DNA from: Candidatus Latescibacterota bacterium
GTDB taxonomy: Bacteria; Latescibacterota; UBA2968; UBA8231
Length of the DNA stretch: 64,000 nt
Direction of reading: 5' to 3'
NCBI GenBank assembly: GCA_965242865.1
Contig: CBDETK010000013.1
Location: 4,608,001 to 4,672,000, forward strand
Numbering within the stretch: position 1 is the first letter of the stretch; each line of letters opens with the position of its first letter. The notes under the pieces are model-generated. The model ran no database searches and had not been told where the DNA came from. It saw nothing but the letters and a program-made list of their open reading frames with translations. This document shows positions 1 to 55,396 of this stretch, piece by piece. The translations under genes were made by a program, and so were the position numbers.

Positions 1-1260
1 GGTGAAGTCTATAGCGTCGATCCCGCCTACAGCACCAGTTCCTTTCTAGCCGGCACCCAAAACGACGCAGCCGATATCAACTACGACGATGACCTCCGTT
101 TTGTGTACGAATTCGTTGATGACAACGACGACCAAGACCGCAACCCCGACTGGCAGCGGGCCAATTTCTCGCAGGATAGGAAAATTTTCCCCGGGTTCGA
201 CGAAAACAACGATTTCATTAACGACTTCAATCAGAATGACTCCGAGGATCGCTGGAATACGGTGCCAGACTACGAGGAGCCTTTTCTCCGCTACGCCTCG
301 GATCGGCCCGAATTCCTCTTTGGAGTCGATATGAACAACAACGGCATCGTCGACCGCTTTGAAAACGACATTCTGCCCGACTACCTATACAAACGGGATC
401 GGCGCGGATACAACATCTACGTGGGGTCTCATTTGGGGCCAGAGGCGCGGCTGACCGTTGGGCGCCTCGACGAGCGCCAGCTAGCCGACGCCCGCGAAAA
501 CGTCACCAATTACGCCTTGCTGACCTTTGACAAGGACTACGCCAGCAAGGGGCGCGTGCAAGTGTACAACAACTATCGAAGAGTCCAAGACAATATTCGC
601 GACGACGTGATTGAATGGGTGGTGCGCGAGGGGTCGCGCGGCGACTTAGTGCCCTATACCGATCTCCTGCCCCTGCGCGATGGTTGGGCCAATACCCTGT
701 ACTTGGGCTATCAATACCAGAGCGACCGCATCCACTTCAAAAACCGCGCTAAGTGGGAGGTTTTCAAGCAATCCAATTTCGCCGACCGCCCCATTGAGGA
801 GCAGGACATCCGCGAGACCGCTTCCTTCTTTGGGATCCTCAATAAGGTTGATTACACGTTTGACCTCGGCGTCCTCAAGCTGCAGCCGCGCTGGAAGAGC
901 GAGTTCCAGCGCCAGCGGCCATCGCGCCGCGAAGATACGCAGGTGCGGTTGGCTACTACGGAATTGCGCGAGCTCTGGTCTTTGGTCGTGCGCGTACCCA
1001 TCTTGGCGCGCACCGAATTGCAGACCGGCCTAGAGTACCTGCTCGTCGAGCAGTTCCGCGAGGATCTGGAAACCCACTTGCTGCGCTCGGATCGCAACGA
1101 GATGGTCTTTGCCCTGCAGTTTACCAACAATGCCGAATACCTAGGCTATAATCTGTGGACCCAGACCGGGTTCCGCGTGTCGCGGATCGATCGCGCCTCG
1201 GCCGAAAGGACGCGCACCGAAACAGCCATGTTCGTCACCGTGTTCGCTGGCTTAGAGTAG
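1..1260 (+). CDS. 5'-truncated predicted outer-membrane protein with acidic DxNxD segment; paralog of 45599..48328 and 48331..51051
   Basis: Frame is open from base 1 (GEVYSVDPAY...). Shares VDDNDDQD..FPG[FW]DENNDFINDFNQND..PDYEEPFLRY.SDRPEFLFG.D[ML]NNNG..DRFEND and C-terminal YLGY..FAGLE with both paralogs; alternating beta-strand-like C-terminal half. Confidence 0.8.
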   Translation, partial: GEVYSVDPAYSTSSFLAGTQNDAADINYDDDLRFVYEFVDDNDDQDRNPDWQRANFSQDRKIFPGFDENNDFINDFNQNDSEDRWNTVPDYEEPFLRYASDRPEFLFGVDMNNNGIVDRFENDILPDYLYKRDRRGYNIYVGSHLGPEARLTVGRLDERQLADARENVTNYALLTFDKDYASKGRVQVYNNYRRVQDNIRDDVIEWVVREGSRGDLVPYTDLLPLRDGWANTLYLGYQYQSDRIHFKNRAKWEVFKQSNFADRPIEEQDIRETASFFGILNKVDYTFDLGVLKLQPRWKSEFQRQRPSRREDTQVRLATTELRELWSLVVRVPILARTELQTGLEYLLVEQFREDLETHLLRSDRNEMVFALQFTNNAEYLGYNLWTQTGFRVSRIDRASAERTRTETAMFVTVFAGLE

Positions 1261-2029: not shown

Positions 2030-2118
2030 CGCGGCACCGGGGTAAGCCAATTTCAACTCGCTGCGCGGTGCCGCTGGGGAAGCGGTGCCGCGCAGTTTTG
2101 TACACAGGTGATGCCATT

Positions 2119-3780
2119 ATGTTGCAGGGATTTTTTGTCTGCGGCCTCCTCTTAGCGGTCGCAGGTTGCGAGCGGGAAAGTGGACCGGCCACTCCGGTCT
2201 TGGCCACGGTGGCCGGGGAGGCGATCACGGCCTTAGACCTCGACCGCTTTGAGCGGGAATTGCCCGATTATCTGCGCTCGAAGAAGGAGGGCGTAGCGGC
2301 CCATCGCGCCCATTTGCAGAGCTTGATCGACAAGAAGCTCGTGCTGCGCGAGGCTAGGAAGCGGAAACTGGAGCAGCTACCCGGCCTGAAGCGCGAGCTC
2401 GCCAAGATGGTCAACAAGCGCCTCGTGGAGGAGCTGTCGCGCGAACTGGTCGATGCCCAGCTCGCAATTACCGAAGAGGAACTGCGCGCGGATTATGAGG
2501 AGCAAGCGCTGGGTTGGGAAATCTGGCCGGCGCACATCCTCTCGGCCAGCGAAGAAGACGCCCGCGCGATCATCCGCTTACTCGATGCAGGGGCCAGCTT
2601 CTCCGAATTGGCCCGCGAGCGTTCCCTCGCCGACGACGCAGACAAAGGCGGCAACCTCGGGGCCTTCTTCGGCCAAGGGGGGGCCGTGGCCAGCTTGCGC
2701 GCTGGCACCTTCCACTTGGAGGAAGGCCAAATCAGCGAGCCGATCCGCACCATCGATGGCTATGAAGTGGTCAAGGTGCTCAAAAAGCAGCGCATTCCCT
2801 TTGAAGAATTGCGCGACGATATTGCCAAGCGGATCAGTCGGCGCAAGTGGGTGAGCCGGCGCGAAGCAGTCATTGATTCGCTCAAGCAGGCGCACGACCT
2901 GCGCTATCACCGCGATCGCGTCCACGCCGTGCTCGCTGGGCTGCATGGCCGGGGACTGGACCAAGCGCACGCGCAAGCCCCGCTCGTCGAATACACCGGC
3001 GGGGCGATCAAGGCGGGCGACTTCGTGCGAGGGCTGCTCGATTTGGAAAAAGGCGCGTTGCCGCCCGACAGCGCCGCCGTCTTTCACGTGCTTGAGGTGT
3101 GGATTCTTCCCGATTCGCTGCTGGCTCTCGAAGCTCGCACGCAGGGGCGGCATCAGCGAGCCGATATAGTGGAGTGGAAAGAAAAAAAGCTCCAGCGGCT
3201 GCTCGCGTCCCAACTGCGCCTAGACCAAGTAGCGGGCCAGGTCGAAGTGACAGACGCTGAGGTTCGGGCCTATTACGACGACCACCTCGATGCCTACAAG
3301 TCCTTGCCCGGTATCATCGAGATGACCGAGGTGCTGGTCAATACGCACGCGGAAGCCGAGGAAATTCTCGTGCGGGCGCGCAGCGGGGAGCGGCTAAGGG
3401 AGTTGGCGATTCGCCATTCGGTGCGGCCGGGCATGAAGCCGGTGGGCGGCCATGCGTTCGCCGATAGCGGTCGGGTCACCCTTGAGTCGCTGTACCAGTC
3501 GCCGTACCGCACCTTCTTTGGCGACCACAATGCCAAAGACGTCGGGGTGCTGCAAGGCCCGCTAGAGGTCCAAGAAAAGTACAGCGTCTTTCGCCTCGAC
3601 CAGCCCTTTGAAATGGTGCCGTTGCCCTTTAAGCAGGTGCAGCGGCCCATTCGCGTCAGTATCCGCAAGCGCCGCGAAGGGGTGATTTTCGCCGCGTTCC
3701 TCGACTCACTGCGCCGAGCGGAGGCCGAGCAGGTGCAAATCAGCGAAGAAGCTCTCGCCCGTTACCCGGCCGCGCGTTAA
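2119..3780 (+). CDS. PpiC/parvulin-type peptidyl-prolyl isomerase lipoprotein (PrsA/SurA-like, two rotamase-like domains)
   Basis: Lipobox LLAVAG-C after ATG 2119; LATVAGEAIT, LQSLIDKKL (SurA_N-like), AHIL..FSELARERS..KGGNLG, GQISEPIRT.DGYEVVKV. Confidence 0.85.
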   Translation: MLQGFFVCGLLLAVAGCERESGPATPVLATVAGEAITALDLDRFERELPDYLRSKKEGVAAHRAHLQSLIDKKLVLREARKRKLEQLPGLKRELAKMVNKRLVEELSRELVDAQLAITEEELRADYEEQALGWEIWPAHILSASEEDARAIIRLLDAGASFSELARERSLADDADKGGNLGAFFGQGGAVASLRAGTFHLEEGQISEPIRTIDGYEVVKVLKKQRIPFEELRDDIAKRISRRKWVSRREAVIDSLKQAHDLRYHRDRVHAVLAGLHGRGLDQAHAQAPLVEYTGGAIKAGDFVRGLLDLEKGALPPDSAAVFHVLEVWILPDSLLALEARTQGRHQRADIVEWKEKKLQRLLASQLRLDQVAGQVEVTDAEVRAYYDDHLDAYKSLPGIIEMTEVLVNTHAEAEEILVRARSGERLRELAIRHSVRPGMKPVGGHAFADSGRVTLESLYQSPYRTFFGDHNAKDVGVLQGPLEVQEKYSVFRLDQPFEMVPLPFKQVQRPIRVSIRKRREGVIFAAFLDSLRRAEAEQVQISEEALARYPAAR

Positions 3781-36057: not shown

Positions 36058-37728
36058 ATGTCCAAAGGGGTTGCCGAGGTACTGGTGGTCATGCTACTGG
36101 GCTGCCAAGCGCAATCCGGGCGGGAACAGAGCGAGCCGCCCCCCTCCCCCTTTTACTTCGTCGATGTCAGCCGGGCGGCCGGGCTAGACTTCACCAATGT
36201 TTCCGGCAGCGCAGACCAGAATTACGTCCTCGAGTCCATGTCCACCGGGGCGGCTTTCCTCGACTACGACGACGATGGCTTTCAAGATTTGTTCGTCGTC
36301 AATGGGACGCGGTTAGAATACCAACCCGAGGGCGCCCGCAACCGGCTGTTCCACAATGAGCCGGGTGCGGGCGGGGAGCGAATTTTCCGCGAGGTGGCAG
36401 CCGATTTCGGCGTTGGCGGCTGGGGGATGGGATGCGCTGTAGGGGACTACGACAACGATGGCGACGTCGATCTATACGTCACGTATTGGGGCCCCAACCA
36501 ACTCTGGCGCAACGACGGAGCCGGCCGCTTTGCCCAAGTGGCCACGGCCGCCGGAGTGGATGACGAGCGCTGGGGCTCCAGTGCCGCCTTCGGGGACCTT
36601 GACGGCGATGGGTGGCTCGATCTATACGTGGCCAACTACCTCGAATTCGACTTGAAGAATCCGCCAGCGGGCGGGTCTAAATGCCACTACAAAGGGCTGT
36701 ACGTGTACTGCGGCCCCGAATACGCCGGCCGGTCGGCGGATCGGCTCTACCGCAACCGGGGCGACGGAACGTTTCAGGATATGAGCGATTCCACCGGAGT
36801 CGGCGTCCGGCGCTATCCGGCGATGGGGGTCGTCTTCAACGACTTGGACCGCGACGGCGATCTCGATCTGTACGTGGCCAACGACACCGAACCCAACCTG
36901 CTCTGGCGCAACGATGGCAACTGGCGTCTGGCCGAGGTAGCTGTCGAGGCTGGTGCCGCGTACAGCGGCGATGGCTTGCCGCAAGCCAGCATGGGGTTGC
37001 ACGCTGGCGATTTTGACAACGACGGCGATCTCGATCTGTTTGCGACGCACTTTTCCGAAGAGCTCAATACCCTGTACTGCAACGAGGGGGCTTGGAGGTT
37101 CCGGGATTGCACCCGCGCGGTCGGCTTGGGCCAGATTGAGGCCCCCTATTTGGGCTGGGGCACGGCCTTTGTCGATTTTGACCGCGATGGCTGGCTCGAC
37201 TTATTCGTCGCCAATGGACACGTCTATCCGCAACTGGACCAACACTACGCCGATTTGCGCTACGCCCAGCGCAATTTGCTCTACCGCAACGAGGGCGGGC
37301 AGTTTGGTGAGGTGGGCGAGCAGAGCGGAGCCGGGTGGACGTTGCAGAAAGTGAGCCGCGCTGCGGCCGTGGGCGATTACGACAACGACGGCGACGTCGA
37401 TGTTTTCATTATGAACTTGAACGACGCGCCGACCCTGCTGCGCAACGACAGCGCGGCGGATAACCGCTGGTTGGGTCTGCGGTTGGTGGGTGCCGAAGGG
37501 CGGCTGGCCATTGGCGCTGTGGTGCGCGTGCGAGCGGGCGGCATGGAGCAAGTGCGGGAGGTGCATCGCGGGTATAGCTTCCAAGCCCAAAACGACCCGC
37601 GCTTGTTGTTTGGCTTGGGACCGACGGCCGAGGTGGAGCAGGTGGAAATCCGCTGGCCTTCTGGCCGGCGGCAGGTTTTGCCGGGCTTACCGACCGACCG
37701 CTACGTGGAGATAGTAGATAGGCGCTGA
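36058..37728 (+). CDS. CRTAC1-family lipoprotein (FG-GAP plus ASPIC/UnbV)
   Basis: Lipobox VMLLG-C; DYDNDGD repeats; AIGAVV..GYSFQAQNDPRLLFGLG..RWPSG. Confidence 0.9.
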   Translation: MSKGVAEVLVVMLLGCQAQSGREQSEPPPSPFYFVDVSRAAGLDFTNVSGSADQNYVLESMSTGAAFLDYDDDGFQDLFVVNGTRLEYQPEGARNRLFHNEPGAGGERIFREVAADFGVGGWGMGCAVGDYDNDGDVDLYVTYWGPNQLWRNDGAGRFAQVATAAGVDDERWGSSAAFGDLDGDGWLDLYVANYLEFDLKNPPAGGSKCHYKGLYVYCGPEYAGRSADRLYRNRGDGTFQDMSDSTGVGVRRYPAMGVVFNDLDRDGDLDLYVANDTEPNLLWRNDGNWRLAEVAVEAGAAYSGDGLPQASMGLHAGDFDNDGDLDLFATHFSEELNTLYCNEGAWRFRDCTRAVGLGQIEAPYLGWGTAFVDFDRDGWLDLFVANGHVYPQLDQHYADLRYAQRNLLYRNEGGQFGEVGEQSGAGWTLQKVSRAAAVGDYDNDGDVDVFIMNLNDAPTLLRNDSAADNRWLGLRLVGAEGRLAIGAVVRVRAGGMEQVREVHRGYSFQAQNDPRLLFGLGPTAEVEQVEIRWPSGRRQVLPGLPTDRYVEIVDRR

Positions 37729-37737: not shown

Positions 37738-39450
37738 TCAGCGCGAAGGCGCGGGCGGGTCGAGCTGGATTTGGGGAATGGCTGCTTCAAAGACGCGCAC
37801 CCGATCGGCGTACTCTGCTCGGCAGCGGGCGACCAATTCGTTGAAGCGCCGTTCCTGCTCTATGACGCGCAAAATCGCCGCTACGCGCTGGTGTACCGCT
37901 TTTAAGGGGGGGATTTCCCCGCCGCTGCGCTCTTTGACGCGGAAGATCGAATAGCCGCCGGCCACCGCTACCGGGCCGACCAAGGCCCCGATGTCGGCGG
38001 CCATAGCATGGTCCACCAGCGCGCCGTAAATCCCTTGCTGATACGAATGGAGATGAAGTTTCCCCCGGCCATCAGGCCCCCCGGGACGCTGACTCAGGGA
38101 AGCTACATCGGCGATGGTTTCGCCGCGGTCTAGACGCTGGCGCAGAACCTCGGCTCGGTCGCGGTCTTCGACTAAGAGCTCGTCTAGCCATATTTCCACC
38201 GGGGTGCGAAATTGTTGCCGATGGTCTTGGTAGTACTGGGCTACGGCCGCATCGGTGATGGTTATTTGGTCGCCGATCTCGCGCTGGCGCAGGGCGAGGA
38301 TGAGCAGTTCCTCGGTCTTGCGCTGCTTCCAGTAGCGCATGGCCGGGCTCTCGGTGTGGCCGGCCTCTTTGGCCGCGCGCCAGACCAGCGTCTTGGGAAT
38401 GGGCAATTTCCAGGCCGCCCGGATTATTTGCAGGCTGTCGCCCAAGGCCGGCACCTGCCGGCTGCGGCGGAACGATTCAATGTAGTGAGTCGCGGTTATG
38501 CGGCCGCCGTCAAACGTGAACAGCGGTGCCGAACCTTCCTCGGGGGCGAGTGTGGGATAGGGCTCGATGGCGGGGTCTTGGGCCGCAAGGACCGCCAGCC
38601 CAGCAGAGTGCAGGCGCAGGTTTAGGGAAATCGCCAATTCCTCGATCAGGGCCTGATGTTCGGCGACGAAGCGTTCCTTCCACACATCTTTGTACAAGCC
38701 TTGGCGATGCTGGGCGAAATCGCCTTGGCGTTCAGCGGTGCAGAAAACGAGCTGGTAATTTTTGCTCAGGGGCAGGACCTCAGACAGGGAACCGCGCTTT
38801 AGGTTGGCAAAAACTTGGGCGGGAATGCCGTGATTGGCGGCCCCGACGCGGTTGACATAGCCCAAATCGCCGCCCTGCTCGGCGGATTGCAGGTCAAGGG
38901 AATGGGCTTGGGCCAAGGCGGCGAAGTCGTCGGCCGTGGCTATTTGCTGGCGCAGTTTCACGGCTTCGTCGCGGGTGTTGACCAACAGGCGGAGTAAGCG
39001 CTTTTCGCGCTGAAAATCGCCGGCCACAAACAGCGCTTCGAGCTCCTCGTCGGAAATTTCGATCCGGGCGCTTACTTTGACGCTTTGGTAGGTGTTGATG
39101 ACCTTTTCGCGAAATTTCCACGCGAGTTTGTTCTCAAAGGTCCGCACCGTGTCCAAACCGCGCGCGCGGGCCGCATGCGCTAGCAGCTTCTGGTCTATGA
39201 GCGATTGCAGATAATCGCGGCGTGCGGCATCGCCGCTCTCCTTGGATTTTAGACCCGGCCCCAACGAGGCAATGAGACGCTCTACTTCAACCGCGAAAAT
39301 AGAATCGCGGCCGACTCGGGCGACGGCGATTGGCGGGGCCGTTTGCTCGGGCGGGGGCGGGGCGGGCGCGGGGGATTGGTCTTGGGGCACACAAGCAGAC
39401 AGAACCCAACTGAGTGCCAAACACGGCATTGAAACGGTGGGGCGATACAT
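37738..39450 (-). CDS. PpiC-type peptidyl-prolyl isomerase lipoprotein; paralog of 2119..3780
   Basis: Lipobox WVLSA-C; YLQSLIDQKLL, FAALAQAHS.D..SAEQGGDLGY, GPV.V.GGYSIFRV. Confidence 0.85.
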   Translation of the reverse strand: MYRPTVSMPCLALSWVLSACVPQDQSPAPAPPPPEQTAPPIAVARVGRDSIFAVEVERLIASLGPGLKSKESGDAARRDYLQSLIDQKLLAHAARARGLDTVRTFENKLAWKFREKVINTYQSVKVSARIEISDEELEALFVAGDFQREKRLLRLLVNTRDEAVKLRQQIATADDFAALAQAHSLDLQSAEQGGDLGYVNRVGAANHGIPAQVFANLKRGSLSEVLPLSKNYQLVFCTAERQGDFAQHRQGLYKDVWKERFVAEHQALIEELAISLNLRLHSAGLAVLAAQDPAIEPYPTLAPEEGSAPLFTFDGGRITATHYIESFRRSRQVPALGDSLQIIRAAWKLPIPKTLVWRAAKEAGHTESPAMRYWKQRKTEELLILALRQREIGDQITITDAAVAQYYQDHRQQFRTPVEIWLDELLVEDRDRAEVLRQRLDRGETIADVASLSQRPGGPDGRGKLHLHSYQQGIYGALVDHAMAADIGALVGPVAVAGGYSIFRVKERSGGEIPPLKAVHQRVAAILRVIEQERRFNELVARCRAEYADRVRVFEAAIPQIQLDPPAPSR

Positions 39451-39722: not shown

Positions 39723-40613
39723 ATGGCACGTCGCATTATGACGGCTGCTTTGGCTCTCACGTTGGGCCTTGCGGTCAATGTTTCGGCGCACTCGCCCGAA
39801 GGCGCCATTTTTCCGGCCTTCCAGTGGCCAGCCGGCCTCGAGCCCGTCCTAGACGGCGTCGGCAGTGAATACGATATCGTCCCCGAGGCGTACTGGCAGA
39901 CCACCGAGCAGTTTCCCGATACCCAAGGTGGGCGGGAGATAGATGCGTCCAATTTCGACGCCAAAGCCACGGTGACCTTCAGTTTGGGGACCAACCGGCT
40001 CTACTTTTACAGCCAAGTATTCGACGACATCAACCGGCCGGGCGACACGTGGCAAATTCTCCTCGACGCCGACCACAGCGGGGGCGAATGCTATCCGGGC
40101 GATGAGCGGTTGGACGGTTCCCAGTGCTATCAGACCGAGACCTACAACAACATCGGCGACACGGTGTTAGGCTCGGAAATTGTCCACTTCTTCTGGGGCG
40201 CGGCGACTTGGTTGCCCGAGGAGGGCTGGTACAATGCCGTGGCCACTTTTGAAGGCGAGCACTACGGTCCGGGGACGACTTGGCTGGAAATCCGCTTGGC
40301 GCCCACCGACGACATCAATCCCGCCGGCCCGGGCGAGTCCATCCTCCACACGATGCAAGAGAGCAACATAATCGGCATCCACTACAACTGGATGGATTAC
40401 GACGTGGGCTGCCGCGAGCCGCGCGCGGGCGAAGAGTGCAGCGGCTGGGACGCTTTTTACAACCTGAGCCAGAGCGACATTGGCTTTAGGAACGCCGATG
40501 GCTGCAGCGACTTCTTCTTGTCGCCCATTGACGAGAGCGTTGACTTCGGCTCGATTCCCTCGGCGGTTGAAGCCACGACTTGGGGCCGGCTCAAGGCCGG
40601 TTTCGTCCACTAA
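39723..40613 (+). CDS. Exported CBM9/DOMON-like protein with SAVEATTWGRLK tail
   Basis: AAGGA RBS; signal peptide (VSA-H); AFQWP..PVLDG, RLYFYSQVFDD, LLDADHSGG; paralog of 18394..19365. Confidence 0.78.
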   Translation: MARRIMTAALALTLGLAVNVSAHSPEGAIFPAFQWPAGLEPVLDGVGSEYDIVPEAYWQTTEQFPDTQGGREIDASNFDAKATVTFSLGTNRLYFYSQVFDDINRPGDTWQILLDADHSGGECYPGDERLDGSQCYQTETYNNIGDTVLGSEIVHFFWGAATWLPEEGWYNAVATFEGEHYGPGTTWLEIRLAPTDDINPAGPGESILHTMQESNIIGIHYNWMDYDVGCREPRAGEECSGWDAFYNLSQSDIGFRNADGCSDFFLSPIDESVDFGSIPSAVEATTWGRLKAGFVH

Positions 40614-40695: not shown

Positions 40696-42543
40696 ATGAA
40701 AGCCGCGCTGCTGTCTTTTCTGGCCCCGACCTTGGCTTGGGGACTCACCATATATCGAGTGGGTGGCCATGGGCTTCCGCCGCCCGAATTGGCGAGCCAT
40801 CCAGCCGTGGAGTTTGTCCAGTTGAGCTGGGAGCGCTTTGCCGAGGGCACCGAGGGGGTGCAGGTCGGCGTGGAGGTCGGCCAGGAGGGCCGGCTCGCCC
40901 CGGTGTTCATTCCTTCGGACGAGAATATGGCGCGGTCTTCCTTTGCCCGCGGCGGCGGCCCCGGCAGTTGGAAGTACAATTTTCTCACCAAAGGCGAAGA
41001 AATCGATCGGATCGCCGACGGCGATTCAACCACTTTTCTCGACCCGGCCGTGCTGGTCGCGCGCTCGGAGTCGTCCTTGGTGTATCTCGATTTAGGCGGC
41101 CGCTTCTTGGTGAACCGAGTGGTCGTCTATCCCCGCCCGAATCATCCCGACCGCCTCATTGCGGACTACACCCTGTACTCGTTGCCCAAGGGGACGATAA
41201 GGCCACAGAGCAAAAACGCAATCGCGCGGGGGACCGACAACCGAAATCCGCGGCTCGAAATCAACTTTGTCCCCCGGGTTCTCGATCAGATCCAGCTCAA
41301 TATCCACAAAAAAGAGGGTTGGGAGATCGCCGAGCTGGAGGTCTATGGCGAGGGCTATGTATCGAGTGCCCTGTACACTTCCGGGGCTTTTGACCTCGGC
41401 CAGCCATCCAGCTTGGGTGCGGTCCGCTGGTCGGGCTTTGCAGATACCCACGCTAAACTGAGCATCCGCACGCGCAGCGGCCATACGGCGGATCCCAATC
41501 GCTACTGGCGGTTTACCGGCCGCGGCCAAGAGAAAACCTTCCGCAATGCACAGGGGGAGCCCTTGACCGGGGCCGACTACCACAACCTAAAGGGCAACAA
41601 AGCCGAAATCACCACGGACCTCGACAACTGGAGTTCGTGGTCCGGGCCGTACGATTGGGCCGACCGGCGCGGCACGGCGATTACCTCGCCGAGCCCCCGA
41701 CAATTCATCCAAGTGCAGTTGGAGTTTGTACCCAGTGGACTGGACGGCGCGGCCCTCGATTTTATTGAATTCCGCGTCACCCAGCCGCCGGTGGCCGGGC
41801 GGGTGCTCGGCGAGATCTGGCCGATTGAGGTAACGCCCGGGGAAGAGACGGCCTTTGTCTATGCCATGCGGCCGGATTTTGCCGGCGGCGAAAGCGGCTT
41901 TGACCGCTTGGTGCTGGAGACGGCGGGGCAGTTCACCAGCGTCGATTCCGTGCGCGTCAATGAGGAAGTGCAGGATTGGCGCCTCGTCGAGCCGTTGACG
42001 GACCAGCGGTTGGTCTTGGAAGTGGGGCGCATGGACCGGAGCAAGACCGGCCGCGTGGTGGAGGTGTTCTTTAAGGGGCGGGTGTTTCGCTTTGGCACGG
42101 TGTTCGCCGCCGAGGTCTTCGATAGCCAACGCCCGCTGGAGGTGGGGCAGTTGGTCGAAGATGGGGATGCGACCTTCCGCCTAGACGGCAACCAGCGGTC
42201 GGTGGGGATTGAGTTGGGCCGCACGATCGTCAGTGAGTTGGTGCTCAGTTCGCAGGTATGCACGCCCAATGGCGACCGAGTCAACGACGAGGTCCATATC
42301 GAGTACACGCTGCTCGAACTGGCCGGCACCGGCGCGGTGGAAGTGGGCATATTCGATCTGGCGGGACGCCGAGTGCGCCAGGTGTATCGGGGCGCGGATA
42401 CCAGCGGCCAATACGCCCGGAGGTGGGATGGCCGGGCCGATGGCGGGAGCGTGGTGGCGCCGGGTGTATATCTCTACCGAGTACAGGTGGATACAGACGA
42501 AGGACGGACCGAACGCAGTGGACTCGTGGCGGTCGCGTATTGA
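40696..42543 (+). CDS. Exported discoidin-like / FlgD-Ig-tail protein
   Basis: Signal peptide; IADGD.TTF, LDLGGRF.VNR, ELEVYGEGY, WSSWSGPY, SPSPRQF, TPNGDRVND, WDGR, PGVYLY, terminal VAVAY. Confidence 0.85.
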   Translation: MKAALLSFLAPTLAWGLTIYRVGGHGLPPPELASHPAVEFVQLSWERFAEGTEGVQVGVEVGQEGRLAPVFIPSDENMARSSFARGGGPGSWKYNFLTKGEEIDRIADGDSTTFLDPAVLVARSESSLVYLDLGGRFLVNRVVVYPRPNHPDRLIADYTLYSLPKGTIRPQSKNAIARGTDNRNPRLEINFVPRVLDQIQLNIHKKEGWEIAELEVYGEGYVSSALYTSGAFDLGQPSSLGAVRWSGFADTHAKLSIRTRSGHTADPNRYWRFTGRGQEKTFRNAQGEPLTGADYHNLKGNKAEITTDLDNWSSWSGPYDWADRRGTAITSPSPRQFIQVQLEFVPSGLDGAALDFIEFRVTQPPVAGRVLGEIWPIEVTPGEETAFVYAMRPDFAGGESGFDRLVLETAGQFTSVDSVRVNEEVQDWRLVEPLTDQRLVLEVGRMDRSKTGRVVEVFFKGRVFRFGTVFAAEVFDSQRPLEVGQLVEDGDATFRLDGNQRSVGIELGRTIVSELVLSSQVCTPNGDRVNDEVHIEYTLLELAGTGAVEVGIFDLAGRRVRQVYRGADTSGQYARRWDGRADGGSVVAPGVYLYRVQVDTDEGRTERSGLVAVAY

Positions 42544-42566
42544 GCGGCAGCTCAAAGGAGAAAGCA

Positions 42567-43436
42567 ATGGACAGCATGTATCTGCGCTGGGCTGGCTGTG
42601 GGCACTTTGAGGCCCTATTGGGCGATGTCAACGTGTGTTTTGATCCCTATCTCTTCGGCGAAGAACTCGACCGAGCCGAACCGATTTTCGACTACGTTTT
42701 CATCAGCCACGAGCACTTTGACCATTGTCACCCCAAGACCTTGCACAAGCTCTGTAGGGGCGAGCGCTGGAAAAAACTCTTCGTCCCCATCGGCTGTCTG
42801 ACGCCCAACGAACCCATTGACGAACACTACGGCGACGCCGCTTTTGCCCGCGACCTGCCCATCACCAAGCACATCGACCCGGCCAAGGTCCAAGTGGTCT
42901 ATCCCAAGTACCAGGACGTCGCGCGCTATGGCCGCCGCGAATTTCCCGGCCCCTTTGCGCTCGACCTAGGGCCGCTTCAAGTCGAAGTGTACGAAAGCGG
43001 CGAAAGCGCCCGGCCGGACCTGCCCACTTGCGCCTATCTAGTCACCCATGCCGCCCGGGATGTAGCCATTTTCCACACCGGAGATTTGCACGGGGCCTAT
43101 CCGCCGCTGGAGAATCTGCGCGGCCGCGTCGATTACTTAGTGCATATGAAGACGCCGATGGGGCCGCTGATCAATGCGGTGCGGCCCAAATTCGTCATTC
43201 CCACCCACTATCGGACGGACCGCCAGTCCGAGCCGATTCCGGCCGGCCATTGGCCGCCCAATCTAACGGACGTCAACGCCTTCCTCGAAGACCTGCGGCA
43301 GCAGATTGACGGTCAAGCCCAATTGCTGCCCTTTACCGCGCCCATTCAATACGAAGTGGAGCTGCCAGCCAAAAAGGTCAAGTGGGCGTGGGCGTGGTAC
43401 AATTCATGGGATGTTCCGGCTTGGCGCGCCGAGTAA
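42567..43436 (+). CDS. Metallo-beta-lactamase-fold hydrolase (UlaG-like)
   Basis: AAGGAG RBS; FDPY, SHEHFDH, HTGD, IPTHY. Confidence 0.85.
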   Translation: MDSMYLRWAGCGHFEALLGDVNVCFDPYLFGEELDRAEPIFDYVFISHEHFDHCHPKTLHKLCRGERWKKLFVPIGCLTPNEPIDEHYGDAAFARDLPITKHIDPAKVQVVYPKYQDVARYGRREFPGPFALDLGPLQVEVYESGESARPDLPTCAYLVTHAARDVAIFHTGDLHGAYPPLENLRGRVDYLVHMKTPMGPLINAVRPKFVIPTHYRTDRQSEPIPAGHWPPNLTDVNAFLEDLRQQIDGQAQLLPFTAPIQYEVELPAKKVKWAWAWYNSWDVPAWRAE

Positions 43437-45598: not shown

Positions 45599-48328
45599 AT
45601 GTATGGCCGGTGCGGGTTGGCTTTTCTGCTCCTTTGCTGCTTGCTGAGTCCAGCGTGGGTCCAAGCGCAGGATTACGGCTCGCGCCTCGGGGTGCAGCGC
45701 GGCGGTCGGGTGTCGTACGAACCTCGGGGGCCGGGCGTGCTCTTTGACGCCCTCGACCCCACCCTCAAACGCTGGTACGTGCCTCAAGAACTCTACAACG
45801 AGTACCGCTGGCGGCCTTGGCAGTACAACAACTACGCCCGCGAGAACTACCAGCGCTACGTCAATACGGCCATTGAGGGCCATTACTTCTACGACCTATA
45901 CGGCAATTTTGTCACCCAAGGCTGGCTGATCTACGACATGCGCCGGCAACAACCGGCCGAGTTCGGCAGCACCGTGTTTAAGGACAGCCGCTACGGCTCG
46001 TGGTTCAACAACGTCTTGATCGCCTCGGACAGCAAGGGCCAAAACCACTACGCGGTGACCATTGGCAACAGCATTCGCACGACCCTGACGCCGCTGACTT
46101 TTTCCAAGCCGGCCTTCAACGGCATCGAGGCCGATTTTGCCGCGGACAAATACCAAGCCACCGTGCTGTTGTCGCGCATCAGCGCCCCCAACCAAGTGGG
46201 CGTCGCCGTGGGCGCCGTGCCCACGGGCGTATCGAACACCACCGACTTTCTCGGCGGCCACTTCACCGCGCAGGTGGGCGATTTCGTCTCCTTGGGCGCC
46301 ACCTATGTCAACGCCCACCAGTCCAACACGCTGTTGGAGAGCTTTCTCGGGGGGCGCGCCCAAGGCGATTTGACCGTCGAGCAAAACAGCAGCGCGGTCA
46401 CCCGCATTGAAATTTTGCTCGAAGACGACTCGCCCGCCGATGGCCGGGGGGGGGCCGCGCTGTTTTCGCAAAACATCATCATCACGGCGATTCGGGACTT
46501 CAACACCGGCGAGCGCGAAACCGTCACCGGCAAGGAGATCAACTTCACGCCCCTCGTCCAAGGCGGCTTCCAGCGGCCGGGGGGCTTTTTGGCCGCGGAC
46601 GGGGACGAGGCCATTCGCCTGATCTACGATTTTTCCGACCGCGCCTATTTGGGGCCAGACCCCTCGACCATTGTCGAGGTTACGTTCGAGTTGGTGCTGG
46701 CCAACGACTACAAGGTGTCGATGGCCTCCAATCGCCAACTGAGCCGCACGGGCGAATTCCATCCCCTGCTCATCGCCCGGGCCGACGGCAATGTGCGCGA
46801 CACTTCAAACCAGCGGCTCGTGCGCTTTGACTACGGCCTACCCACCGCCAACCAAATTTTCGGCTTCCACCTCGCGACGACTCGCTTCTTAGGCTTTGAC
46901 ACCTATGCCGAATACGCGGTCAACCACCAATTCAGAAAATACCCCAACCCCAATGTAGAAGGCGACCACCAAGCGGCTGCGCGGCGGGCCGATGCTTGGA
47001 TGCTCAACGCGGCGAAAACCGCCTATCCGTGGTTTGTCTATGGCGAGGCTTTCAGCATGGGCAAAGACTACGCGACCCGCATCTTTCTCAGCGACCCGCG
47101 GGGCGTCATTGACTATGCGACCCACAACCGATTCTTCGAGTTCGTCGAGGACAACGACGACCAAGACCGCACGCCCGACTGGGGACGAGCCAACCAAGCC
47201 GGCCCCGACATTGAAGTCTTTCCCGGCTGGGACGAAAACAACGATTTCATCAACGACTTCAACCAAAACGACAACCGCACGCGCGAGAACCAGTTGCCCG
47301 ATTACGAAGAACCCTTCCTGCGCTATCACAGCGACCGGCCCGAATTTCTCTTTGGCATTGATCTCAACAACAACGGCTGGATTGACCGCTTTGAAAACGA
47401 CACCGAGCCCGACTTCCCGTACAAGCGAGACCATCGGGGGTACAACGCCTACGGCGGCGTTCACCTGACGCCGGAGATCCGGCTGACCGCGGGGCGGACC
47501 CGGCAGTGGTTGATCTCGGCGGCGCGGCGCAGCGAGACCAGTTACGCCCTCTTTACCTTGGACAAGGATATTGCCGGCTGGGGGCGCGTCCGGGTCTTTG
47601 AACACCTCAAACGGGCGCGCGACGCGATCGCGGACGACCGCATCGCGCCCCTGCCCTTTTTCCGCGGGCCGCAGCTACCGGTCCAAGATGTACTGCCGGC
47701 CCAAGACACGTGGATCAACGCGGTGTGGCTGGGCTTTAAGTACACGGGCACGGCCAACCTCGTGGTGGAAAACAAGCTCAAGTGGGAATTTTTCCACCAA
47801 TTGCTCGACGATGAGGTCTTGGCCGAGCGGGGGGCGCGGCGGGATTCGCGCTTTTTCGGGCTGATCAATAAGGCGGAGTATGCCCTCGACCTAGCCGGGG
47901 TGGAGCTGATGCCGCGGGTCAAAAGCGAGTACCTGATTGACTCGCCCTTTCTGCGGGCCGAAGACGAGCGCAAGCAGTGGACGCCGAGTCTGTTTTTCAT
48001 TACCCGCCTGCCGCTGATGCCGCGCACCCAGATCGAAGCGGGCTGGGAGCAAAATTACCGCTGGGAGTTGCTGCGCGACGAAAAGGCCCTAGTGGAGACG
48101 GGGGCCGAGGGGGTGGATACCGGGGATCAGCGCGAGACCATTCTGGCGATTCAGGCGACCAACATCAGCGATTATTTGGGCTATAAACTGATCACCCAGC
48201 TCGGGTTCCAATACGAGCGCCGCGCCGCGGAAATCGTCGAAAAGAAAGCCGCGGATTTCGGCTTGGGGAACCGGACCTCGACCGGGTTCACGACCTTCAT
48301 CACGGTGTACGCCGGGCTGGGTCTCTAG
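45599..48328 (+). CDS. Large predicted outer-membrane protein with acidic Ca-binding-like segment
   Basis: GGAGG RBS; signal peptide (VQA-Q); WYVPQELY, IASDSKGQ, RFDYGLPTANQ, acidic block shared with paralogs, terminal VYAGLGL. Confidence 0.8.
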   Translation: MYGRCGLAFLLLCCLLSPAWVQAQDYGSRLGVQRGGRVSYEPRGPGVLFDALDPTLKRWYVPQELYNEYRWRPWQYNNYARENYQRYVNTAIEGHYFYDLYGNFVTQGWLIYDMRRQQPAEFGSTVFKDSRYGSWFNNVLIASDSKGQNHYAVTIGNSIRTTLTPLTFSKPAFNGIEADFAADKYQATVLLSRISAPNQVGVAVGAVPTGVSNTTDFLGGHFTAQVGDFVSLGATYVNAHQSNTLLESFLGGRAQGDLTVEQNSSAVTRIEILLEDDSPADGRGGAALFSQNIIITAIRDFNTGERETVTGKEINFTPLVQGGFQRPGGFLAADGDEAIRLIYDFSDRAYLGPDPSTIVEVTFELVLANDYKVSMASNRQLSRTGEFHPLLIARADGNVRDTSNQRLVRFDYGLPTANQIFGFHLATTRFLGFDTYAEYAVNHQFRKYPNPNVEGDHQAAARRADAWMLNAAKTAYPWFVYGEAFSMGKDYATRIFLSDPRGVIDYATHNRFFEFVEDNDDQDRTPDWGRANQAGPDIEVFPGWDENNDFINDFNQNDNRTRENQLPDYEEPFLRYHSDRPEFLFGIDLNNNGWIDRFENDTEPDFPYKRDHRGYNAYGGVHLTPEIRLTAGRTRQWLISAARRSETSYALFTLDKDIAGWGRVRVFEHLKRARDAIADDRIAPLPFFRGPQLPVQDVLPAQDTWINAVWLGFKYTGTANLVVENKLKWEFFHQLLDDEVLAERGARRDSRFFGLINKAEYALDLAGVELMPRVKSEYLIDSPFLRAEDERKQWTPSLFFITRLPLMPRTQIEAGWEQNYRWELLRDEKALVETGAEGVDTGDQRETILAIQATNISDYLGYKLITQLGFQYERRAAEIVEKKAADFGLGNRTSTGFTTFITVYAGLGL

Positions 48329-48330
48329 CC

Positions 48331-51051
48331 GTGGCCCGGGTGGTTATGGCCATACTCGCCCTGTTGTCGCTCGGCGGCGAGCTCGGCGGCGAGGAATACG
48401 GCAATCGCTTGGGGCGGGGGCACGGCGGCGGGCTGCAATACGTCACGCGCAGCCGCAGCACGCTCATCAACGCCATTGATCCGCGGATCCAGAAGTGGTA
48501 CATGCCCCAAGAACTGTACCGCGAATACCGCCTCAAGCAGTGGGAATACACCAATTATGCGCGGAATTTCTATCGCAGCTATTTATCGGCCACGCTCGAA
48601 GGAGATTACTTCTACGACTTGTTTGGCCGCCGCGTGATGCACGGGTGGTTGGTGTACGAGGCGAGAAAGGAGCAGCCTAGAGCGTCGGAGGGCAACAGCC
48701 TGCTCAAGGGCCTGCCCTACGGCGGCAATTTCCAGAACCTGATCATCGCCTCGGACTCCAAGGGGCAGCACCACTTCTCCCTGACCATAGGCGATGCGAT
48801 CGCCACGACCCTCACGCCGATGACGTTCCGCAAGGCCGCCTTCAACGGCGTCCAGTTTCACTATCTGCAAAACCGCTACGCGGGCACGGTGCTGTTGTCG
48901 CGCATCAGTGCGCCGCTGGTCACCACCTCGTCGTTCGACGTGGGGCTGACCAATGCCACGGAATTGACCGCCGGGCGGCTCACCGCCCAGTTGGGCGATC
49001 ACCTCACGGTCGGCGGTACGTACGTCAACAGCCACAACAGCCGCGCCACCTTGGAGCGCTTTGCCGGCAACATGTTCAAGGGGTTTCTCACCACCGACCA
49101 AGCCAGCAACGCCGTCACATTTGTCGAGGTGCGCCTCAGCGACGATTCGCCCGAAGACGGCGAGAATGGGGCCGTTCTCTTTGCCGAGAACATCATCTTA
49201 AAGGACGTGCGCGGTCATCAGTGGAACGGGGCGCAGGTCGGGTACGTGCCGGCGCGCACGGGCGGCGAATTGCGCGACGGTTTTGCGGTGGCCGACGGCG
49301 GCGACCGCATGGTGCTGCGCTACAATCTCGAAGCCTTGGCCGCGGCGCGGGTCGTGGAAGTGGATGGCGAGCGTACATGGCAGCCGACTGCGGTCGATTC
49401 CCTCGCCGAGGTGCGCTTTGAATTGGCCTTAGCCAATGATTATCGGGTCGAGGTCGCTTCAAATCGCCAGACCAATATCGAGGCGCAGCCGGTCTTCCTC
49501 TTGGTCGAGCGCGCCCCGGGCAATGTCGGCGATACCTCCAATCGGCGCACCGTGCGGTTTGACTACGGCTTACCCACGGCCAATCAGCTCGCGGGCCTCA
49601 CCTTGGAGGTGCGCCAACTGTGGGGTTTTGACCTGTACGCCGAATTAAACGTCAACCACCGCTTTGCCCAGTACCCCAGCCCCCTGCTGGCGACCCACCG
49701 CACCTCCTCTCGCCGGGCCGCGGCGTGGATGGTTGAGCTCGCGCATAGACGAGCGCCCTATTTTTTGCACGGCGAAGTCTTCAGCATGGACCCAGAGTAC
49801 ACCACCAGCGTCTTTATGACCGAGACCAACGGGCGCGTCGATTACGTCGATCCAGAGTCCTTTTTGTACGACTATGTCGATGACAACGACGATTTGGACC
49901 GCTTCCCGGATCAAAAGCGCCGGTGGCAATCCTCGAGATTGGGGCAAACCCTTTCCACGGGCGAGGGCGCGGCCGACCCGGCCGTGTTCCCCGGTTGGGA
50001 CGAGAACGGCGATTTCATCTCCGATTTCAATCAGAACGACACGCCGACGCGCCGCAATGCACTGGCCGATTACGAGGAGCCCTTTTTGCGCTTTAGCGTC
50101 GATCGCCCCGAGTTCCTTTTTGGCCTGGACATGAACAACAACGGCTGGATCGACCGCTTTGAAGACGACGCAGAGCCGGACTATCCCTACGACCGGGATC
50201 TGCGGGGATACAACGTGTACGGCGGCGTTGACATCGCGCCCCAGGTGCGCTTGATCGCGGGCCAGACGCAGCAGTGGCAGTTGTCGAGCAAGCGGCGCAG
50301 CGAGGCCGCCTACGGCCTTTTGGTCCTAGAGCAAGACTGGCCCGGCCTAGGGCGTCTGCGAGTCTTTGAGCAGCTAAAAAAGGTGCGCGACAATATCGCG
50401 GACGACCGCTTGGCCCCGCCGCAGGCACTGGGCGAGCAGCAGGCCGTGGTCGAGGACCCGCTCGCGGCCCAGAACACTTGGATCCACACCGCGTGGCTGG
50501 GGTTTGATTACACGGGCCTAAAATCGCTGCAGGTGATCAACAAGTTCAAGTACCAGGGCTTTCACCAACGCGCCGCCCAGCCGGTGCTCGCCGCGCGCGG
50601 GGCGCGGCCCTTGGGGTACTTTTTGGGCGTGGTCAACAAGGTCGATTACGGCCGCGATCTGGGCCGAGTACACCTCCGCCCGCGCCTTAAAAACGAGTTG
50701 TTCTGGGAGGTCCCCTATCTAGCGCGAGCCAGCGCGCGTCAGTGGTGGAAACAGTTGCTGTCGTTCAGCGTGCGGTTCCCCATTTTTAAGGAGTCGTGGA
50801 TTGAGACGGGCGTTGAGCAGGTTTTTACCACCGACCTCGCCACGGCCCCCCAAGCAGGTGACCGCACGGGCGATGGCCAGCAGACGATTCTGGCGATTGA
50901 GCTGACCAATTACGGCACGTACTTGGGCTACCGCTCGGTCATGCAGTGCGGCCTGCGCTTCGATCGGGACCAGTTTGAGCGCGTTGGCCGCCGGGCCGCA
51001 ACCCAGACCGGCAGCCTCGTCTTTGTCTCGTTCTACGCCGGGCTGGAGTAG
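48331..51051 (+). CDS. Large predicted outer-membrane protein, tandem paralog of 45599..48328
   Basis: Collinear motifs WYMPQELY, IASDSKGQ, LLSRISAP, DDSPEDG, RFDYGLPTANQ, DYEEPFLR; terminal FYAGLE. Confidence 0.8.
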   Translation: MARVVMAILALLSLGGELGGEEYGNRLGRGHGGGLQYVTRSRSTLINAIDPRIQKWYMPQELYREYRLKQWEYTNYARNFYRSYLSATLEGDYFYDLFGRRVMHGWLVYEARKEQPRASEGNSLLKGLPYGGNFQNLIIASDSKGQHHFSLTIGDAIATTLTPMTFRKAAFNGVQFHYLQNRYAGTVLLSRISAPLVTTSSFDVGLTNATELTAGRLTAQLGDHLTVGGTYVNSHNSRATLERFAGNMFKGFLTTDQASNAVTFVEVRLSDDSPEDGENGAVLFAENIILKDVRGHQWNGAQVGYVPARTGGELRDGFAVADGGDRMVLRYNLEALAAARVVEVDGERTWQPTAVDSLAEVRFELALANDYRVEVASNRQTNIEAQPVFLLVERAPGNVGDTSNRRTVRFDYGLPTANQLAGLTLEVRQLWGFDLYAELNVNHRFAQYPSPLLATHRTSSRRAAAWMVELAHRRAPYFLHGEVFSMDPEYTTSVFMTETNGRVDYVDPESFLYDYVDDNDDLDRFPDQKRRWQSSRLGQTLSTGEGAADPAVFPGWDENGDFISDFNQNDTPTRRNALADYEEPFLRFSVDRPEFLFGLDMNNNGWIDRFEDDAEPDYPYDRDLRGYNVYGGVDIAPQVRLIAGQTQQWQLSSKRRSEAAYGLLVLEQDWPGLGRLRVFEQLKKVRDNIADDRLAPPQALGEQQAVVEDPLAAQNTWIHTAWLGFDYTGLKSLQVINKFKYQGFHQRAAQPVLAARGARPLGYFLGVVNKVDYGRDLGRVHLRPRLKNELFWEVPYLARASARQWWKQLLSFSVRFPIFKESWIETGVEQVFTTDLATAPQAGDRTGDGQQTILAIELTNYGTYLGYRSVMQCGLRFDRDQFERVGRRAATQTGSLVFVSFYAGLE

Positions 51052-53581: not shown

Positions 53582-55396
53582 GTGGGCCGCCCAGTCCAAC
53601 GGTGGATGGCTGTTTGGGTGCTTGGCTGGGCCGTGGGCTGCCAAAGCGAGCGGCCGGCCGTGTACTTCACCGATGCCACCGACCAAGCCGGCCTTTCTTT
53701 TATCCACGAAAACGGCGCGGCCGGGCAGTACTGGCTCATCGAGACCATGGGGGCCGGCGGGGCCCTTGCCGACTTGGACGAGGACAGCGACTTGGACGTC
53801 TATCTGGTCAACGGCTTCGATCTAAGGGGCTTGAACGCCCGGCCGATCAACTTGGTGCGCCGCGAAAACGGCCTCTATTGGGTGGCTCCGTCGGCCCCCA
53901 GCCCCGAGCCACGCTCGGCGGACCCGGCCGATTATGCGGTTGAGCTGACGCCCGCGGCCGGGGTGGTGCCAAGGGGCAACGCGCTCTACCGCAACGAAGG
54001 GACTGGTACTTTTGTCGAAGTGCCCAATGCCGGTGGGGCCGCGGATGTAAGCTATGGCATGGGCGTAGCCGTGGCCGATGCCGACAACGACGGCGACCAA
54101 GACCTGTACGCGACCAACTACGGACCCAACGCCTTCTATCGCAACCGCGGGGACGCTACCTTCGTCCGCGCCCGGGGCGTTAAGGCTCCCCAATGGAGCA
54201 CCAGCGCCGCCTTTTTCGACCGCGACAACGATGGCTCGCTCGACCTGTACGTGGTCAACTATCTCGATTTTACCCCAGCTACCAACAAAATCTGCGGCGG
54301 CTTCATCCACACGGACGACGCGGGCTTGCGCGCCATTGGCGAAGATTCGCGCTCGTACTGTGCGCCCAGCGAGTACGGGGGCGTGCCCGATGTGCTCTAC
54401 CACAACGCGGAGGACGGAACCTTTGTCGATGTATCCCTGGCTGCCGGCGTGGCCAATCCCGAGGGCAAGGGGCTGGGCGTGGTGGCTTGGGACTGGAACG
54501 AGGACGGGTACCAAGACCTGTACGTAGCCAACGACGGGGTGGCCAACTTCCTCTACCAAAACGCCGGCGATGGCACGTTCCGCGATGTAGCCCTGCAAGC
54601 TGGGGTGGCCTACAATGTGCGCGGCCAAGCCGAGGCCGGCATGGGAGTCGATATCGGCGATTGCGACCGCGATGGCGACTGGGACCTGTTCGTCACCAAT
54701 TTCTCCCGCGAAACCAATACGCTCTATCGCAATGAGGGAACCTACTTCAAGGATGTGACCGCGGCGGCGGGCTTGGGCCGGCCGAGCTGGCTCTATTTGG
54801 GCTTTGGCACCGCGTTTTTCGATTACGACCACGACGGCGACCCGGATCTGTACGTGGCCAACGGCCACGTCTTGGACCGCGTCGAGGTACTGCAACCCGG
54901 GGTGCGCTACGCCCAAGAGCATCAGTTGTTTCGCAACGATGGCTCCTGTCGCTTTGCCGAGGTGGGGGACCGCGCGGGGAGTTGGTTCGCGCAAGCGCAA
55001 ATAAGTCGGGGGCTGGCCCGGGGCGACTGGGATGGCGATGGCGATTTAGACCTGCTGGTGACCAATTGCGGCGGCCCGGCCAAGCTGGCCCGCAACCACC
55101 ACGGCAACGGGCGTCACTGGGCCTCGATCAAGCTGGTGGCTACAGCGGCCAACCGCGACGCAGTGGGAGCCGAGGTGCGCGTGGTGACCGATTCGTTGGA
55201 CCAGCGCCGTCTCGTGAGCAGCGGGAGCAGCTATTTATCGGCCGGCGATCGGCGGCTCCACTTTGGCTTGGGTGACCGCCAGCGCATTGATCGGCTCGAA
55301 GTCCAATGGCCCCATGGCGTCAGGCAGGTATTTCGGGAGCTACCCGCCAACCGGAATTTGCTCGTTGAGCAAGGACGGGGCGTGCAGTATGAATGA
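53582..55396 (+). CDS. CRTAC1-family lipoprotein (FG-GAP plus ASPIC/UnbV)
   Basis: Lipobox WAVG-C; DxDxDG repeats; NRDAVGAEV..GSSYLSA.DRRLHFGLG..QWPHG. Confidence 0.9.
   Translation: MGRPVQRWMAVWVLGWAVGCQSERPAVYFTDATDQAGLSFIHENGAAGQYWLIETMGAGGALADLDEDSDLDVYLVNGFDLRGLNARPINLVRRENGLYWVAPSAPSPEPRSADPADYAVELTPAAGVVPRGNALYRNEGTGTFVEVPNAGGAADVSYGMGVAVADADNDGDQDLYATNYGPNAFYRNRGDATFVRARGVKAPQWSTSAAFFDRDNDGSLDLYVVNYLDFTPATNKICGGFIHTDDAGLRAIGEDSRSYCAPSEYGGVPDVLYHNAEDGTFVDVSLAAGVANPEGKGLGVVAWDWNEDGYQDLYVANDGVANFLYQNAGDGTFRDVALQAGVAYNVRGQAEAGMGVDIGDCDRDGDWDLFVTNFSRETNTLYRNEGTYFKDVTAAAGLGRPSWLYLGFGTAFFDYDHDGDPDLYVANGHVLDRVEVLQPGVRYAQEHQLFRNDGSCRFAEVGDRAGSWFAQAQISRGLARGDWDGDGDLDLLVTNCGGPAKLARNHHGNGRHWASIKLVATAANRDAVGAEVRVVTDSLDQRRLVSSGSSYLSAGDRRLHFGLGDRQRIDRLEVQWPHGVRQVFRELPANRNLLVEQGRGVQYE

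Follow-up and report, generated by a model that had tools for sequence, protein, structure and literature searches.

What do two adjacent, related genes of about 900 codons encode, when their products match no named protein family and the genes around them specify proteins with FlgD-type tails? This question is raised by a stretch of 64,000 nucleotides (nt) from a Candidatus Latescibacterota bacterium (GenBank assembly GCA_965242865.1, contig CBDETK010000013.1, positions 4,608,001 to 4,672,000 of the forward strand), the whole of which is referred to below as the window. The tandem pair consists of P0001 (alpha) and P0002 (beta), and a third, incomplete paralogue, P0003, lies at the window edge (Table 1). 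Our analyses support the prediction that these proteins belong to a family of Sec-exported outer-membrane beta-barrels of about 900 amino acids (aa), which is mainly a family of Latescibacterota metagenome-assembled genomes (MAGs) and occurs in several copies per genome. The evidence for the family and its fold, the conservation of one acidic segment within it, the genes to which it is linked, and the function that it may serve are discussed below.

A family of predicted outer-membrane barrels

The three proteins had been described, in a reading made from the sequence alone, as members of an unrecognised family, and the searches agree with this description: no match was obtained for P0001, P0002 or P0003 in Pfam and NCBIfam at E<=1, nor in a sequence search of the PDB at E<=10 with either the single sequence or a profile of the close family (A1), and a profile of a distant branch (A4) gave one chance match in the PDB (E 0.38). 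The source names of all relatives, including those of the distant branch, are "hypothetical protein", and our literature searches turned up general Latescibacteria genomics only and no paper on the barrel family. An Atlas search with the whole protein returned unnamed clusters apart from DUF6029 (PF19494), a lead from shared features (0.89, 163 features) that we rejected, as it had no hmmscan match.

The family is large and its members are diverse. Among 8000 candidates scored, 1099 clusters (90% identity) were found at E<=1e-3, and a profile search of 1.84 billion representatives gave 1052 (50% identity) at E<=1e-3, 770 at 1e-10 and 368 at 1e-30. At least 563 genome stretches were confirmed from at least 576 pattern matches in species-representative genomes. 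By MAG label, the best 80 loci comprise 50 with names beginning Latescibacter, 23 beginning Gemmatimonad, 5 from "uncultured bacterium", and 1 each from Handelsmanbacteria and Planctomycetota; five loci share 93-94% identity with the window. Single chromosomes among these loci carry at least eight (OZ220721.1) or at least six (OZ244561.1 and OZ220690.1) family genes. The best 150 representatives range from 122 to 1057 aa in length, and no fused forms were found among proteins of 1592-4545 aa, although this is weak evidence. The distant branch (P0172 and its relatives, in alignment A4) occurs in MAGs labelled Latescibacterota and Gemmatimonadaceae; its members are 23-30% identical to P0001, keep the acidic signature described below, and carry a longer insert ahead of it.

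Within the window, P0001 and P0002 share 46% identity across 894 aa, and P0003 is 44% identical to P0001 across 441 aa. P0003 represents another subtype, with at most 52% identity to any of the 118 members of the family tree. The sequence GGGAGGG is found 6 nt upstream of the P0001 start codon, and P0002 begins 2 nt beyond the P0001 stop codon. The reading frames assigned to the three genes in the sequence-only reading were recovered unchanged, as were all of its motifs, viz. the acidic run, a Tyr/Trp-rich N-terminal block (WYxPQELYxEYR..NYAR), DDSPxDG, and C-terminal ends of the form [YF]AGL(E/GL), which read YAGLGL, YAGLE and FAGLE in the three paralogues. The N-terminal block is kept in the close subfamily and is lost as a conserved feature beyond it (conservation 0.24 in the alignment of 74 sequences described below).

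The fold was predicted with AlphaFold2 (AF2). The model of P0001, built on 45 sequences (pLDDT 72, pTM 0.67), is almost all beta, with long hairpin strands across residues 95-500 and 612-906 (pLDDT 80-94), and its low-confidence stretches (residues 16-94, 119-145, 522-567 and 590-598) correspond to the N-terminal block and the acidic segment. A Foldseek search of the PDB gave 98 matches at E<=1e-3, and all 47 of the matches listed are outer-membrane barrels (viz. LptD, MtrB, Deinococcus SlpA, TonB-dependent transporters, the ushers PapC and FimD, and porins), the top ones being LptD 5iv9_A (7.5e-9) and 6r2q_B (2.3e-7). A hydrophobic N-terminal stretch is present in 113 of 118 family members, few of which have a lipobox-like motif. 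The barrel assignment made from the sequence is thus supported by the N-terminal stretch, by the regular hairpins of the all-beta model and by the kind of structures matched; the model as compared by Foldseek is that of a barrel, and no confident full-length match to a characterised family was found.

The strand topology of P0001 was read by hand from the DSSP string. Between strand 173-181 and the final strand, 886-906, tight turns of 2-5 residues (following residues 181, 226, 430, 474, 624, 658, 715, 765, 807 and 859) alternate with longer connections (193-213, 243-414, 447-459, 487-612, 675-704, 734-749 and 823-840). Outer-membrane barrels terminate in the periplasm, and hence the long connections of P0001 would lie on the outer face, together with the two parts that they contain, viz. 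a beta-rich insert (244-413), which starts with the DDSPxDG motif, and a loop bearing the acidic segment (488-611). The model suggests about 24 strands, a closed barrel and a lumen, and the same topology would place the N-terminal block, which is modelled as helices (pLDDT ~30), in the periplasm or inside the lumen.

The closest structural comparisons are with other very large barrels. LptD, MtrB and the ushers are barrels of 24-26 strands that enclose or pass another macromolecule; they are similar in size to the predicted barrel and are among the top Foldseek matches, but their TM-scores are 0.16-0.24 and they lack any sequence model match, there being no Pfam match to LptD, usher, MtrB or SprA at E<=1, so that the likeness is one of fold class only. 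Unlike LptD, the barrel family varies and is present in multiple copies. The highest structural scores (TMq 0.25) were obtained for another very large outer-membrane barrel, that of Deinococcus SlpA (SlpA_C, PF21620), which is also the only Pfam model touched by any relative, and these likenesses raise the possibility that the family consists of structural giant porins or envelope tethers related to SlpA or to OmpM-type proteins. Weak SlpA_C matches were indeed found in 13 of 31 distant-branch members (best E 1.9e-6), and a precomputed PF21620 label is attached to four members of that branch. However, every one of these matches is confined to the distant branch, is below the 35-bit cut-off and covers only about 75 of the 656 profile positions (~231-308); P0001-P0003 have none, and a search of the PDB with profile A4 at E<=10 recovered no SlpA chain. 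The family also lacks the S-layer homology (SLH) domain and the coiled coil, and many diversified copies in variable operons are ill-suited to a housekeeping envelope protein. We regard a role of this kind as highly improbable.

Conservation of the acidic segment

The Asp/Asn-rich acidic segment was singled out in the sequence-only reading as nearly unchanged among the three paralogues, and its near-invariance extends to the superfamily. An alignment of 74 sequences, with identities as low as 23%, has no 98-aa window more strongly conserved than this segment (0.59 versus 0.39 overall), whose Asp plus Glu content is 27.6% versus 13.2%. Residues 514-611 of P0001 are 68% identical to P0002, compared with 47% for the remainder of the two proteins, and 74% identical to P0003, compared with 40%, so that its conservation exceeds what chance would give. 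The positions that are near-invariant superfamily-wide are Asp, Asn, Glu, Pro and Gly. The first conserved run is DDNDDxD..PD; the second is PGxDE(D/N)xD(G/F)xxDxNxN, where distant relatives read DxDxDGxPD; the third is PDYxEPFL; and the closing run is YGxDxNNNGxxDxxE(N/D)D..PDYPY, which includes an EF-hand-like 12-mer (residues 588-599 of P0001 and 600-611 of P0002).

Calcium-binding loops with which the segment may be compared are those of thrombospondin type 3 (TSP3) repeats, the EF-hand, dockerin and the aspartate cage of BtuB. The segment shares with these loops the Asp/Asn spacings DxDxDGxxD and DxNxNGxIDxxE, but it differs from them in that no motif model is matched and in that the 12-mer is found in its strict form in just 35 of the 74 sequences. 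A search of the Atlas with the segment alone gave no usable match. It is modelled nearly without secondary structure, which would be in keeping with a chain that takes its order from bound ions, as in TSP3 repeats. The segment probably folds around several Ca2+ ions, a reasoned guess from motif resemblance alone (TSP3-like DxDxDGxxD and the EF-hand-like 12-mer).

The segment is near-invariant while the partner proteins encoded beside the barrels diverge to 25-35% identity, and hence its role is more likely to bind something that does not vary, for instance ions, lipid or a conserved tail, or else to serve as a common gate; that it sets partner specificity is unlikely.

Linked genes and partner proteins

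Open reading frames (ORFs) were called and clustered in the best 80 loci and in the window, the simple ORF caller missing the family gene in 3 of the 80. The upstream neighbour on the same strand is a gene for a protein of one cluster, here called A, for 87 of 121 family genes and another family gene for 26; four family genes are at a locus end and four have some other upstream neighbour. The median gap to the upstream neighbour is 12 nt, and the gaps in the window are 12, 2, 4 and 9 nt. The association with FlgD-tail genes that had been noted from the window alone is accordingly much stronger than it had appeared, with an A gene or a family gene upstream in 113 of 121 cases.

Cluster A has 212 members, which are paralogous across about 600 aa, carry an F5/8-type-C/discoidin signal, and end in an FlgD_ig/CHU_C sorting domain. 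The A protein encoded directly upstream of P0001 consists of a string of beta-sandwich domains, including one that is CBM32/discoidin-like, followed by an FlgD_ig-type sorting domain of the T9SS (type IX secretion system). Its AF2 model (pLDDT 88.5) shows beta-sandwich domains strung one after another, one of which resembles a galactose-binding CBM32 (TMt 0.73); further structural matches were to Ig-like domains and the PorU tail, and no enzyme-specific structural match was found for the model. The A proteins, among them the three of Table 1, end in V[VA]Y, with a terminal aromatic residue, and the barrels end in [YF]AG[LV] followed by one or two residues. The A gene downstream of P0002 has an ATG 4 nt past the P0002 stop codon, its ORF being listed from 50975.

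The order of these genes recalls a known arrangement. In two reports, cargo with a type B C-terminal domain is described as having the gene for its PorP/SprF-like barrel shuttle directly downstream of the cargo gene (PMC12618676; PMC9143113), and one of them also describes cognate pairs that diversify together, a likeness shared by the present family (PMC12618676). The barrel may be an anchor or shuttle only, which takes over the adjacent T9SS cargo once it has been translocated, holds it at the surface as PorP/SprF-like barrels do in Bacteroidota, and transports no substrate. The Pfam cut-off of CHU_C, the model of the type B tail, is reached by 3 of the 4 cluster-A proteins of the window (615, 865 and 884 aa), and the invariant acidic segment could bind a conserved tail. 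Against this, the A protein directly upstream of P0001 matches FlgD_ig only, TIGR04131 and TIGR04183 score below their cut-offs, and the family, at about 900 aa versus about 300, is some three times larger than PorP/SprF-like barrels, lies outside the Bacteroidota, and has the acidic segment and the beta-rich loop domain in addition. No match to PorP_SprF (PF11751), TIGR03519 or the PorV/PorQ model NF033709 was found for the family at E<=1, and these models work on this organism, as the PorV-family gene of the window (20155-21117) matches T9SS barrel models. An anchor alone would also leave a 24-strand lumen and the recurrent transporters unexplained, and we consider this explanation rather unlikely. 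A prediction of the complex of P0001 (residues 24-909) with residues 629-734, the C-terminal sorting domain, of the A protein encoded upstream scored 0.00, which counts neither for nor against binding.

Another alternative is a dedicated export pore, in which the barrel works as a translocator of the usher or TpsB kind for the adjoining A proteins, a SurA-like peptidyl-prolyl isomerase (PPIase) is the periplasmic chaperone of these A proteins, and the FlgD-type tail is a targeting signal for the barrel and not for the T9SS. Ushers have 24 strands; PapC and FimD are among the Foldseek matches, the operons are tightly packed, and 32 of 50 loci include a gene for a periplasmic chaperone. However, ushers are matched at TM-scores of 0.17-0.23, there is no match to the Usher, POTRA or ShlB models, and an ordinary T9SS is fitted both by the PorV/PorQ-family gene and by tail proteins encoded far from any family member (62730-63959). 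Export through the barrel is in our view improbable.

Many of the barrels occur in ordered sets. Two family genes are found in 25 of the 50 loci that have full 8-kb flanks and one in 23. In a FastTree tree of 118 family members, a single clade (support 96) unites 25 of 26 second tandem copies, and another (support 98) unites 25 of 26 first copies with one single copy at a contig end, the sub-clades of the two mirroring each other (8, 3, 4 and 10-11 rows). For loci of the order barrel-A-barrel, all 15 first copies group in a clade of their own (support 100), and the 15 second copies are found within one clade of 20 rows. The tree of the A proteins likewise follows locus position, with 16 label changes compared with a shuffled mean of 98. 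Judged from these sequence relationships, the tandem sets appear to be old, stably ordered and co-inherited; the pattern fits non-redundant subunits, and the mirrored clades in fixed order point indirectly to a hetero-oligomeric alpha/beta pair. In ten of the barrel-A-barrel loci (L039, L041, L047, L048, L051, L058, L063, L067, L074 and L077), a leucine-rich repeat (LRR) protein of about 510-620 aa is encoded after the second barrel.

A possible role in capture and uptake

The reading that we favour, tentatively and with a little less than even confidence, is that the barrel family forms the membrane core of a multi-copy surface module for capture and uptake, analogous to the SusC/SusD loci. 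In such an operon-encoded module, the two long outer-face loops of the barrel would carry the beta-rich domain and the acidic segment of about 100 residues; A proteins would capture a polymer at the cell surface; the barrel, or the alpha/beta pair of barrels, would hold them and pass the substrate into the periplasm; and the Ca2+-stabilised loop would act as a lid or constriction. Among its frequent additional parts would be a secreted CBM9-like protein and a SurA-like chaperone of the periplasm. This proposal is preferred because the partners resemble lectins, the barrel is predicted to be wide, the loci are numerous and differ from one another, and transporters recur nearby.

The contents of the 50 full-flank loci bear on this proposal. 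An A protein is encoded in all 50, the secreted protein B297 in 36 and a SurA-like PPIase in 32, and a DUF6785/DUF6784 membrane protein in 19. The B297 family (~290 aa) shows weak CBM9_1 matches in 5 of 31 members, and 27 of the 37 PPIases in the SurA-like cluster have a lipobox-like N-terminus. The multi-pass DUF6785+DUF6784 protein, which recurs beside barrel modules and is encoded in the window at 32965-34998 (+), is a candidate for an inner-membrane partner; no mention of DUF6785 was found in our literature search. Other neighbours vary with locus type, viz. ATP-binding cassette (ABC) sugar-type parts, major facilitator superfamily (MFS) proteins, amidohydrolase, isochorismatase, an enolase-superfamily enzyme, GDSL hydrolase, phosphodiesterase and LRR proteins.

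The SusC/SusD loci of Bacteroidota combine a TonB-dependent transporter with surface glycan-binding proteins. The present loci are like them in having many diversified copies per genome, in encoding a large outer-membrane barrel together with non-enzymatic, carbohydrate-binding-like surface proteins, and in the variation of enzymes and inner-membrane transporters from locus to locus. They differ in that the partners are T9SS-tail proteins and not lipoproteins (a lipobox-like motif is found in just 9 of 199 A proteins), in that no SusD-like protein was found among the scanned representatives, and in that the barrels match no TonB-dependent receptor or plug (PF07715) model in Pfam or NCBIfam at E<=1, with TMq values of 0.17-0.22 to TonB-dependent transporters.

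Several results weigh against capture and uptake. The Foldseek TM-scores are just 0.12-0.25 and hence support the fold class without indicating a family or functional relative, and no homologue of known function is among the relatives found. No TonB-box or plug domain that would power uptake was detected, any type of inner-membrane transporter is near just 23 of the 50 full-flank loci, a count without a base rate, and no glycoside hydrolase is among the cluster representatives scanned (clusters 2-47, 46 in all, of which 30 were scanned, 4 are window genes that were scanned, and 12 small ones were left out). As regards the calcium loop, no EF-hand, TSP3 (TSP_3) or dockerin match was obtained in Pfam at E<=1 for the three paralogues, and both the acidic segment and the N-terminal block are low-confidence parts of the model (pLDDT <50). 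Lastly, the clustering of clades and labels can arise by vertical descent of an old duplication without physical pairing.

A stronger form of the uptake proposal, which we consider doubtful, is that the alpha/beta barrels and the lectin-like proteins delivered by the T9SS together make up a hitherto unrecognised outer-membrane import machine that lacks a TonB plug and is gated or latched by the calcium loop, a Latescibacterota counterpart of the Sus system invented independently from unrelated parts. In a bolder variant, the barrel itself may be the translocon for proteins with FlgD-type tails.

The features of the barrel genes and their neighbours are listed in Table 1. As listed, the ORF of the metallo-beta-lactamase (MBL)-fold hydrolase within the operon shares 286 nt with the A gene before it, and its real start is probably later, given the length of its orthologues.

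Table 1. Coordinates of the barrel genes, their segments and the neighbouring genes in the window.
Feature	Position	Strand	Remarks
P0001, alpha, first of tandem pair	45599..48328	+	909 aa; ATG start; signal peptide; conserved N-terminal block
Predicted barrel of P0001			about 24 strands and two long inserted loops in the model
N-terminal Tyr/Trp-rich block of mature P0001	45668..45880	+	residues 24-94
Beta-rich inserted loop domain of P0001	46328..46837	+	residues 244-413; pLDDT 82-91; predicted on long-loop face
Acidic segment of P0001 (family signature)	47138..47431	+	residues 514-611; TSP3-like and EF-hand-like motifs
P0002, beta, second of tandem pair	48331..51051	+	906 aa; GTG start
Acidic segment of P0002	49870..50199	+	residues ~514-623, with 12-residue insert
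P0003, third paralogue	1..1260	+	C-terminal 419 aa only; open at window edge
Acidic segment of P0003	109..399	+	residues 37-133
A protein directly upstream of P0001	43382..45586	+	734 aa as listed; true start probably later
A paralogue	40696..42543	+	615 aa; CHU_C/FlgD_ig C-terminal sorting domain
A paralogue directly downstream of P0002	51056..53572	+	F5/8 type C (discoidin) domain and CHU_C/FlgD_ig tail
B297 secreted protein	39723..40613	+	296 aa
SurA-like double-parvulin PPIase	37738..39450	-	570 aa
Second SurA-like PPIase	2068..3780	+	adjoins third paralogue
MBL-fold hydrolase inside operon	42258..43436	+	orthologues 289-301 aa
FG-GAP/ASPIC (CRTAC1-like) protein	53582..55396	+	after module in this locus type

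Elsewhere in the window, a second cluster (18394-25108, +) has a GC content of 0.50-0.56 versus about 0.62 in the remainder and encodes a 323-aa B297-like protein with a weak CBM9_1 match, a protein of 249 aa from a recurrent family (G247), a 1081-aa TPR/YfiO-like protein, ExbB, and the PorV/PorQ-family barrel already mentioned (76.8 bits versus a cut-off of 90), whose presence makes a type IX system plausible in this organism. Four genes for FG-GAP/ASPIC (CRTAC1-like) proteins (6848-8725, -; 11554-13281, -; 35893-37728, +; and the one in Table 1) are interleaved with genes for tetratricopeptide repeat (TPR) and PMT_2-type glycosyltransferase-like proteins (8743-15286, -; 55263-57383, +), and in this type of locus one such FG-GAP/ASPIC and TPR/PMT_2 pair comes directly after the barrel operon. 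After P0003 there are overlapping ORFs on opposite strands (1271-2029, +; 1235-2056, -) with no credible family match; a paralogy check found the 252-aa ORF after P0003 to be unrelated to B297. A scan of the window gave no Rfam matches and no tRNAs, and the counts of terminator-like sites (27 versus 22.3 +/- 4.4 in shuffles) and promoter-like sites (1 versus 3.4) are uninformative.

Latescibacterota are widespread, uncultured bacteria that are thought to degrade polymers, and we know of no established route by which they take up their substrates. The barrel family described here is a concrete candidate for the missing outer-membrane step of this uptake, because it comprises more than 1000 clusters, has several copies per genome, lacks a Pfam or NCBIfam name, and has a fixed link to T9SS cargo. 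If it proves to be an import gate that lacks a TonB plug, or else a giant anchor for cargo, it would represent a new architecture in outer-membrane biology. The family would also extend the biology of type IX secretion beyond the Bacteroidota. The invariant acidic segment provides a simple signature for the annotation of the family and a defined peptide for work on calcium binding.

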